NCBI RefSeq assembly: GCF_018389705.1
Contig: NZ_CP065581.1
Location: 690,001 to 722,000 of the forward strand
DNA length: 32,000 nucleotides
Source of the DNA: Mycoplasma mycoides subsp. capri
Lineage (GTDB): Bacteria > Bacillota_I > Bacilli_A > Mycoplasmatales > Mycoplasmataceae
Direction: 5' to 3'
The notes beneath the pieces were generated by a model, which saw only the letters and a list, made by a program, of their open reading frames with translations, did not search any database and was not told where the DNA came from. Below are positions 28,092-31,231 of the stretch, in pieces (the stretch's first letter is position 1; each line of letters opens with the position of its first letter). The position numbers were made by a program, and so were the translations under genes.

Positions 28092-28322
28092 TTAATTTTT
28101 ATAATCTAGAGCAACAATATTTGAAATTTTTCAATAAGAACTATTATTATCATTTGTTAATGTTATTTCAAAACGTTTTCCAACTCTTTTATTAATTTCA
28201 TTTTCTGATGTTAAATTTCTAATTAAATAATATTTAATTTCTTTATCATTACTATTTATTAATTTTGTTGTTCAAGAATCTTTTTTATAATAAATACCTG
28301 CTTTTTGATACTCTAAATTTTT
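28092..28322 (-). other. -1-frame C-terminal continuation (75 codons) of the large membrane-protein gene
   Basis: The -1 frame is stop-free from 28385 to TAA 28092-28094 and has no ATG/GTG/TTG. It encodes ...KNLEYQKAGIYYKKDSWTTKLINSNDKEIKYYLIRNLTSENEINKRVGKRFEITLTNDNNSSYWKISNIVALDYKN. It joins the 0-frame at TTTAAAA (plus 28319-28325). Confidence 0.6.
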
Positions 28323-31231
28323 AAAATAGTTTCTTGATTTTGTAAAACAAAGTTTAATATAGCAAAAATTGTAATTACTGATTTTCTATTTTGATTAGCT
28401 AATTCATAATTTGGATCAGTTATATTAATTCCACCAATCAAAGTAGCTAAAGCATAACCAATAGTATTTTTAATATATTGAACTTTATTTAAATCAATTC
28501 CTAATAATAAGTGCAAAGGAGAATATGAAAAGTCATTTTTTATTTGTTCTAAATCAATAGTTCTTTTTATATCATCACCAAGATTTAAAACAATAGATGA
28601 CCAGTTGTAAAACGATTCTTCTTTTCTTCCTTTATCATTTTCATCATTTTTATGATTAAAAGAATCTAAATCATCATATAATGCTTTAAATAAATTCTTA
28701 TTTGTAATTTTTTTATTATCTATATAAGTAATATCAACACTAGCACTTAATGCTTTTAAAATAAATCCAATTGAAGATAAATCAAATGTTAGTGATTTAT
28801 CAGGATTATTTTTTAAAAATTGATTAATATACTTACTTGTAATTTGAAGTAATTCTAATACAGTTAGATCTTTGATGTTTTCTATTTTTAAATGTTTTAA
28901 AAGATTATCTGGTAATTGAATTTTTAAATCTCTTATATCTGTAATGTTTTTAAATAAAGAATCTTTTGAAAGAATTTTTTCAGAATAATTAGTTAAATCT
29001 TTTTTAATTTGTTCAACACTAGTGATTTTTTTATCTTTATCATTTCTTATTAATCTAATAATAGGTAATAAAAGTTCATCATCTTGATCTTTATTATTTT
29101 TTGGAAATAAAAACTCAGCTAGTCTAGTTGTAAAATCATTTATAAAATTAGTATTAGTTTTTGTTTTTGGATATAAATTAGAAATTAGATCATAATTTAA
29201 TTGCATATTTACACTTTGATATTTATCTGGTATGTATTTAATTATTTTTTTAGTATAACTATCAAATTGTTGAATAAATTTCTTAGTATCACTAATAAAT
29301 CCAAAGTCTTTTAAAAGATCTAATATTTTTTGTAAAGGCTCTACTGCTTTTTCAACTTTACTAATAAAAGAACTTAAACCAAACGTATTTAATAAGTTTT
29401 TTAATGTGTCTAATTCATTTGGTAAATTTAAAATTCCATACAACCCTTTAATACTTGCTATTTGTTTTAAACTACCTAAAGATAAATCAATATTTAACAT
29501 TTTTTGATCACTAAATAAGTTATGTCCTATATCTATAAGTTTTGAAATTTCTTCAAAATTATCTTTAAATCCTATATTAGAATCTAAATCTCTATATAAA
29601 ACTGATTTTAAAAAATTAAAACTATCAGAACTAGTAGCTGAAATAGAATTTCCAATTTGTTTAAATAAATCAAAGATTTTAGTAACTAAACCATTTTTTC
29701 CAAAAATATATATATTAGCATCTACATAATAAAATTTTGTTAATCATAAATTAGTATATATTTGAACAGTTAGTTTATTATAATCTTCATTTGTATGAAT
29801 ATATCCAAAATGTACTGAATGAGAAAAACTATTAACTTTACTCTTTAAAACACCAAGAATTGTATTTCTAATTTTTTCTCTTAGTTCATACATATTTTCT
29901 TTAATATAATTTTCTAAACCTTCAATTGCTTCTTTTATTAATTGATTTGTTTTTAATATAGTTTTTTGAATTAAGTTTATAACATCTAAAATAAGACTAC
30001 TTGTTCCTATATTTTGTGGTATTGTTTTATGATCAAAATATATTTTTGTTTTATCTGTTCTTTTAAATAAAAAATCTAATAATCTAGTTGTATATTTTTT
30101 ATCTTCTAAAACTTTACTAAACCCATTAATTAATAAAGAAAGGTCTAATTTATTATTAATTAATGGATCAAATCTTTTATCTTCTATTTTTTGATTTAAT
30201 AACTGACTTGGATTTGAATATTGTTCGTTAATCACATAATACATACTAAAATATAATTCAGATTGAACATATCTAAATAAGTTATCTAGTATTTTTAAAT
30301 AATCAAACTTTAAAAAATAATCTTTTACTTTATTAAAAATAGTTTTAAATTTATCTAATATTTCAATATTTTTTTTATCTTTATTTCATTCTTGTAAAAC
30401 TATATTTTTAACATCACTAATAATAAGATCACTAACATCATCAGCAAAATAATCATTATTATTATCACTATAAGTTTTTTTAGTAAAACTGCTTGTAATT
30501 AAATTAATGTTTTTATTAAATACTTGTTTAATAGTTAAGTCTTTATAAAAACTTTTATCTACATTTTTAGTTGAAAAAATCTTTGATAAAAGCTTAATCA
30601 AAGATTGGTTATTATTAATAAAATCAACAACACTTTTTATAATATTGTTGTTTTTGATCTTATTTAAATGATCTTCATTTTCAAGAGCTTGAGATTGAAA
30701 AAAAGATAAACCTAATGATGCTAAAGAAGGAGAAAAACCATTTAAAAAATCTTCTGAAGATCTAGTTAAAGCAGTAATTTTATCAATATTTTTAGGAGTA
30801 AATTCACCATTTTTTAAATCAGTAATATCAACTAAATTCTTATTATTATCTCTATATTGTAGTTTTAAATCTTTTTCAATTACATCAATTGATTTTCCAA
30901 AATAAGTTCTATAAATATCTGAAACTTTGTTTTTCAAATTAGCATCAGTTTTTTCTGGTTTTCAAATAAAATCTTTTCCAAATTCTTGTTCTAAATATTG
31001 TTCACTTAATTTTTTATTCACATAGTCTTCATTTAAATCTTCAACACTTTTTAAAATTTTACTTTTTGCTAAATAAGAACTAGCATCAATATAACTTTGA
31101 ATTTTGTTTAAATAATTTTGTTTTGATGAATCAACATAAGATCTAATGAAAAATAAAAATCCACTAATAAAAGCAAACATCACTATTAAACTAATTAATC
31201 ACGGTTTTGCTTTTTTAATAGATTTTTTCAT
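28313..31231 (-). CDS. large N-terminally membrane-anchored surface protein, orphan (972 aa in the 0-frame, ~1,046 aa if joined to the -1-frame segment)
   Basis: ORFs 28313..29500, 29744..30244, 30386..30937 and 30962..31183 are all in one frame. I checked the gaps and they contain only TGA. ATG at 31229-31231 with SD agaggga. The N-terminus MKKSIKKAKPWLISLIVMFAFISGFLFFIRSY is a signal anchor with no lipobox Cys. The 0-frame ends at TAG 28313-28315. Confidence 0.8.

Follow-up and report, generated by a model that had tools for sequence, protein, structure and literature searches.

A gene for a large protein of the STREFT family in Mycoplasma mycoides subsp. capri ends where two reading frames overlap on a sequence that resembles a ribosomal slippage site, which raises the question of whether this arrangement serves to produce two proteins from one gene or whether it has originated from a mutation. 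The locus is part of a stretch of 32,000 nucleotides (contig NZ_CP065581.1 of assembly GCF_018389705.1, positions 690,001 to 722,000 of the forward strand), hereafter termed the window, to which all positions refer. An initial annotation of this sequence had offered two explanations for the junction, a one-nucleotide indel or sequencing error in a U4A5U3 run and programmed -1 frameshifting or transcriptional slippage leading to two isoforms. We consider it likely that the arrangement reflects a real one-base deletion, which truncates the STREFT gene in one M. mycoides lineage, and not a programmed frameshift.

The genes of the window, whose GC content is about 20-25%, are coherent only under genetic code 4, where TGA encodes tryptophan; a list of open reading frames (ORFs) based on table 11 breaks them into fragments, and ORFs were re-called with table 4. 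ORF calling and translation under this code place the 0-frame of the STREFT gene at 28313-31231 on the minus strand, starting with ATG at 31231 and ending with TAG at 28313-28315, and encoding a protein of 972 residues with a hydrophobic segment (MKKSIKKAKPWLISLIVMFAFISGFLFFIR...) at its translated N-terminus. The 3' end of this frame reads ACU AUU UUA AAA AUU UAG (...ETILKI*) and the tract around the junction consists, on the same strand, of T4 (28323-28326), A5 (28318-28322) and T3 (28315-28317). Within it, the heptamer T_TTA_AAA (28319-28325, minus strand) is found in the X_XXY_YYZ phase of a slippery site two codons ahead of the stop, where it encodes a conserved Ile-Leu-Lys sequence. The open -1 frame extends from 28385 to 28092, with 97 sense codons and a final TAA. 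It does not contain any ATG, GTG, TTG or CTG, which led us to reject an independent translation of its tail, and the ATG of the next gene at 28077 follows 14 nucleotides past its stop. The segment stranded in this frame (28092-28319, minus strand), which was assigned by homology and profile match, encodes residues 973-1046 (NLEYQKAGIYYKKDSW...ALDYKN) and a -1 slip or the addition of one A would join both frames into a product of 1046 residues with the junction peptide ...ETILKNLEYQKAGIYYKKDSW.... The end of the 0-frame, the long -1 frame lacking a start codon and its proximity to the downstream gene, the phase of the heptamer and the peptide and approximate length of 1,046 residues resulting from one extra A had all been described in the initial annotation and are reproduced by our analysis.

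The joined 1046-residue product matches the NCBIfam profile TIGR04512 'STREFT protein' over positions 2-1045 of 1045 with a score of 1362 bits (cutoff 125). The name stands for 'secreted thousand-residue frequently tandem' and the family, which is of unknown function, is characteristic of mycoplasmas (PMC9377704). As far as can be judged from its sequence, the repaired protein conforms to this description, with a length close to the expected 1000 residues and the N-terminal segment MKKSIKKAKPWLISLIVMFAFISGFLFFIR as putative hydrophobic signal or anchor. A single STREFT copy is present at the locus, tandem arrangement being 'frequent' but not obligatory, with a gene for an FtsX-like permease and small lipoprotein genes as neighbors, and a paralogue of 35% identity is located elsewhere in M. 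mycoides. A search of 5.8 billion proteins has identified 32 relatives, all from the M. mycoides cluster, which are continuous proteins of about 1045-1053 residues except for one fragment of 805 residues. The nearest of them, from M. mycoides subsp. mycoides (Mmm), contains 1046 residues and is 97% identical. A search of the fused protein against a local copy of Pfam gave no match; the family PF27920 (Mycopla_NOT_gsn) is found in precomputed annotations of homologues.

The conservation of the protein extends into the tail. In a comparison of orthologues and paralogues of 36% identity, 27 of the 74 columns of the tail are invariant, compared to 20% of the columns elsewhere (Fisher p = 0.0017), and relative to the strain GM12 the tail carries only three synonymous and one non-synonymous differences. 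The 74 residues in the -1 frame represent the true C-terminus of the family, which is more conserved than the remaining protein and belongs to the best-conserved portions of the family. The view that the open -1 frame was unlikely to be non-coding is thus borne out by homology, whereas the argument from AT-richness on which it had been based is by itself weak, since stretches of 98 or more codons without a stop are found 51 times in the window, compared to about two in shuffled sequence, and many of these 51 are shadow frames of real genes.

The nature of the junction becomes evident in a comparison with orthologous DNA, which was obtained via look-ups of exact proteins. Scans of genome contigs with the junction pattern, allowing for either A5 or A6, and with the family profile did not return any loci. 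The comparison includes 14 intact loci of M. mycoides, among them CP011261.1, CP011264.1 and CP011262.1 from Mmm, GM12/syn1.0-type records including CP002027.1 and five Logan read assemblies, and CP065583.1 and CP065574.1 from the subspecies capri. Across 3,155 aligned bases, each of these loci shows a single indel relative to the window, at the A5 tract of the latter (28318-28322), which is A6 in all of them. The A6 alleles read AUU UUA AAA AAU/C UUA GAA (I L K N L E), and the bases that form the premature TAG of the window (28313-28315) belong in these alleles to AAU UUA GAA. In total, 14 of 16 M. mycoides loci contain A6, with A7 found in CP011260.1. The orthologues of M. feriruminatoris and M. 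capricolum are also continuous ORFs, with the sequence ATT TTA AAA GAC/GAT (I L K D), where the tract is interrupted (AAAAGA) after four A. Because M. mycoides loci contain A6 and sister species an interrupted tract, alignments and tract counts lead us to read the window allele as a one-base deletion from an A6 run that is specific to M. mycoides.

These comparisons favor the first of the two initial explanations, as the close orthologues contain exactly one more A and a continuous ORF of 1046 residues. They also bear on two findings that had been named beforehand as speaking against a programmed event. The first, orthologues with a continuous ORF, one extra A and no conserved arrangement of heptamer and stop, is what we observe, since this arrangement is present in none of them. 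The second, a lack of conservation of the -1 segment on the protein level, does not hold, as this segment is strongly conserved, although an indel of recent origin would likewise leave it conserved.

We thus envisage the following sequence of events. The A6 run in the STREFT gene, which is part of the Lys-Asn codons AAA AAU, would have lost one A in a capri-type M. mycoides strain. As a result, the reading frame would shift after Lys-972 to meet a TAG two codons further on, leading to a protein of 972 instead of 1046 residues, and the last 74 codons would be left intact in the -1 frame, where their integrity may be ascribed to the recent occurrence of the deletion. The apparent slippery heptamer consists of ancestral AUU UUA AAA codons for Ile-Leu-Lys that were present beforehand. 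The outcome is most likely a C-terminally truncated and probably impaired STREFT protein, a young pseudogene or truncation allele confined to one strain lineage, in which adventitious -1 slippage would at most produce traces of the full-length protein. The event resembles strain-specific frameshift alleles caused by single-base changes of short homopolymers in AT-rich mollicutes, with which it shares the altered length of an A-run, the restoration of a conserved protein upon repair and an intact downstream frame, and it is similarly accompanied by other breaks of the STREFT gene in other strains and by a second broken gene in the window. We find no substantive difference to such alleles, with the deletion being known on the level of assemblies.

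Breaks of the STREFT gene in other strains lead to products of 982, 836, 761 and 309 residues, a variety that would fit a gene which cultured cells can dispense with and which decays easily. In the 761-residue allele of M. mycoides (WP_265510139.1), a further independent break, the N-terminal part is gone and the stop codon is lost, and the protein reads on (...ALDYKKEYNLNEKIINYFRFYYFNYNN) until it enters, in a different frame, the beginning of the lipoprotein gene downstream. The second broken gene of the window encodes a lipoprotein with a Peptidase_S41 domain on the plus strand (6740-8236, and from there in the +1 frame up to 8711). Its reading frame is interrupted at an A7 run (8215-8221) by one extra A compared to the AAA AAC of relatives. 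Removal of one A from this run yields a protein of 656 residues, which reproduces the EEIKNKNTVKNVIFDL of homologues and contains a Pfam S41 domain at residues 468-631 that spans the junction. The same break is found in KB446531.1 of the draft assembly GCA_000339035.1, which is 99.995% identical to window positions 1-18236, with a single mismatch and no gaps. This lone substitution in 18,236 shared bases is located at position 12152, with a G in the window and an A in KB446531.1, which identifies the two as separate assemblies of a near-identical strain.

An alternative is that of a strain with an intact 1046-residue gene and an A6 run, where one A was dropped from T4A6T3 during base-calling or in the consensus. 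A change in the length of a homopolymer by a single base is a classic error, the tail shows no signs of decay, another gene of the 32 kb has been disrupted by a change in the opposite direction at an A7 run, and genomes of relatives determined by 454 sequencing differ in their STREFT gene only by single-base indels, including an A7 at the same tract. These observations are countered by the presence of the exact 972-residue product in public records (EXU60270.1 and WP_237567329.1, 'STREFT protein [Mycoplasma mycoides]'). Its ORF is found on three distinct contigs, the longest of 1,035,494 base pairs, in assemblies with different accessions, which makes a real mutation of the strain more plausible than an error in sequencing. 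A comparable distribution is observed for the downstream lipoprotein (27460-28077, minus strand, 205 residues, lipobox ...AVIAC), which can serve as marker of the strain, with its next-best relative being only 90% identical, and which is also contained on three contigs and in three annotation sources (EXU60269.1, QVK04191.1 and WP_017697935.1). The break in the S41 gene is shared by two assemblies, which are distinguished by a substitution and are thus not copies of each other. Moreover, neither the repaired 1046-residue STREFT protein nor the 656-residue S41 protein is present in its exact sequence in a collection of 15 billion proteins, which in case of the former would be unexpected if any assembly of the strain contained A6, and runs of five or six A are short enough to be called reliably on most platforms. 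We thus regard a sequencing artefact as unlikely. Whereas the missing base is directly observed in the comparison with relatives, as are the family membership, the conserved tail and the absence of recoding signals, we infer that the truncation impairs function and, from the recurrence of the truncated product, that the deletion is biologically real and not a base-calling error. Several points weigh against a real and fully truncating deletion. The reproducibility of A5 is deduced from the number of contigs and the listed accessions and not from inspected junction sequences or reads; a pair of private homopolymer indels within 32 kb, A5 in the STREFT and A7 in the S41 gene, is also typical of miscalls; the 972-residue entry is not linked to a QVK accession, and the annotation of the complete genome itself either regards the STREFT gene as a pseudogene or differs; finally, the full-length frame may be rescued at a low level.

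A different interpretation ascribes the variable tract to phase variation, where slipped-strand mispairing would toggle between STREFT proteins with and without the C-terminal module. The protein is associated with the membrane or surface, phase variation by way of repeats is known from its genus, and across assemblies of M. mycoides the same site contains A5 in the window, A6 in most cases and A7 in CP011260.1, three lengths that are suggestive. The A7 run of this Mmm locus is located at the same Lys-Asn tract (about position 4390-4400 of the retrieved locus) and leads to a product of 982 residues ending in ...ILKKFRISKSRNLL, with the isogenic BEN passage series of Mmm comprising one assembly with A7 and two with A6. 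However, the three BEN-series assemblies (CP011260.1, CP011261.1 and CP011262.1) differ in the STREFT gene by two single-base indels and not by any substitution, which could either be 454 homopolymer artefacts or real mutations acquired during passage. CP011260.1 and its sister assemblies were obtained by Roche 454 pyrosequencing at 27x coverage, with hundreds of mostly single-base indels being reported between passages (PMC4707488), and we have for this reason not accepted the A7 allele of BEN-1 as proof of hypermutability of the tract. In CP011262.1, an extra A is located beside a T7 run and the encoded protein is called with 836 residues. The tract itself, with five to seven nucleotides, is short for a hypermutable homopolymer and unexceptional, as the gene contains 24 other A runs of at least six nucleotides and the window 230 A/T runs of this length. 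Its length is not conserved either, as the sister species contain the interrupted AAAAGA, and it thus lacks the long, conserved repeat of a contingency locus, and within M. mycoides A6 predominates as described.

A case for comparison is found in the same subspecies, where M.MmyCI is described to contain 12 AG-dinucleotide repeats that mediate phase variation (PMC3498834). Both systems have in common that a change in repeat length switches the frame and that more than one tract length is observed among assemblies, in the STREFT case in a surface-associated gene. The STREFT tract differs by its very short length, the prevalence of A6 in most strains, its interruption in sister species and the origin of the A7 allele from error-prone 454 data. 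We thus find phase variation very unlikely. The same low plausibility applies to an extended version, where the Lys-Asn A-tract would act as a genuine switch whose A5, A6 and A7 states add or remove the 74-residue module, with the A5 state being leaky by -1 slippage on U_UUA_AAA to provide a trace of full-length protein; we see a slim chance for this scenario.

In a programmed event, -1 frameshifting on U_UUA_AAA or transcriptional slippage would generate isoforms of 972 and 1046 residues at a fixed ratio. The correct phase of the heptamer two codons before the 0-frame stop, and a -1 frame that encodes the conserved C-terminus of the family without its own start codon, are compatible with this idea. 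As a sole feature, the phase is not discriminating, though. In 22 genes of the window with a total of 8,977 codons, X_XXY_YYZ heptamers are found in phase 202 times. Of these, 60 are identical to T_TTA_AAA, and 13 of the 60 reside within the STREFT gene. T_TTA_AAA is found in the same phase in intact orthologues, because the conserved Ile-Leu-Lys is encoded with preferred AT-rich codons. The in-phase heptamer is not more frequent than expected by chance and coincidentally results from the use of AT-rich codons. Stimulatory elements of a -1 frameshift site, such as a hairpin or pseudoknot located 5-9 nucleotides downstream, are also lacking. Compared to dinucleotide shuffles, there is no excess folding downstream of the junction, with energies of -4.0 kcal/mol for 60 nucleotides (z -0.24) and -8.9 kcal/mol for 119 nucleotides (z -0.38), in agreement with the initial failure to find a convincing hairpin. 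The 35 nucleotides upstream of the junction do not contain any Shine-Dalgarno (SD)-like motif (GGAG, GAGG, AGGA), and an Rfam scan of the window has returned two tRNAs, neither of them near the junction.

These properties distinguish the site from known cases of recoding. In dnaX of E. coli (A_AAA_AAG) and in orfAB of IS3-family transposases, a heptamer of the same 0-frame phase is likewise found near the 0-frame stop and followed by a -1 extension without a start. In contrast to these systems, the STREFT junction contains neither a hairpin or pseudoknot nor an upstream SD element, its arrangement is not conserved, its heptamer is ubiquitous in the genome, and its longer product corresponds to the ancestral single-ORF protein instead of a fusion of two conserved ORFs. 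Similarly, the insertion of one A on the RNA level, as in the A9 tract of dnaX in Thermus thermophilus, in mxiE of Shigella and in insertion sequence (IS) elements with A9 or T9 (PMC1088944), would restore the full-length STREFT frame. In most cases documented for bacteria, slippery tracts contain about nine or more A or T, and many bacteria show evidence of selection against A/T runs prone to slippage from a length of about nine nucleotides (PMC1088944), whereas the STREFT gene contains A5 flanked by T4 and T3, again in an arrangement that is not conserved. With a two-frame arrangement that is limited to the lineage of the window while all orthologues are single ORFs, a commonplace heptamer, the lack of a stimulatory element and a short A5, the second explanation of the initial annotation is thus, in either of its forms, extremely improbable, and we conclude that the site shows no adaptation for recoding.

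Two other features of the window were noted. The described 205-residue protein is the product of one of four paralogous small lipoprotein genes that follow the STREFT gene on the minus strand (25505-28077), encoding proteins of 172, 211, 165 and 205 residues, all with a lipobox ending in AC. Strains differ much more in this array than in the sequences around it, as the nearest relative of the 205-residue protein shares 90% identity compared to about 98.5% for the STREFT DNA, and the number of genes amounts to four in CP065583.1 and three in CP065574.1, with fragments and an IS transposase found in Mmm. The second feature is an uninterrupted A15 run (22855-22869, plus strand), the only A/T run of the window exceeding eight nucleotides, which is located in the intergenic region between a minus-strand gene (22508-22816) and a divergent plus-strand PTS EIIABC-like gene (23026-25458). 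With this length it could act as slippage-prone or phase-variable promoter-spacer tract.

Although the biological importance of the STREFT deletion is small, it illustrates that 'canonical' slippery heptamers in phase are found everywhere at a GC content of about 22%, and that the presence of one where two frames meet is consequently no evidence for recoding. With respect to annotation, there is arguably reason to mark the gene of the 972-residue entry as frameshifted or truncated. For the organism, a strain lineage that combines a truncated STREFT protein with a broken S41 peptidase lipoprotein could matter for its use as a reference and for comparisons of antigens and virulence.

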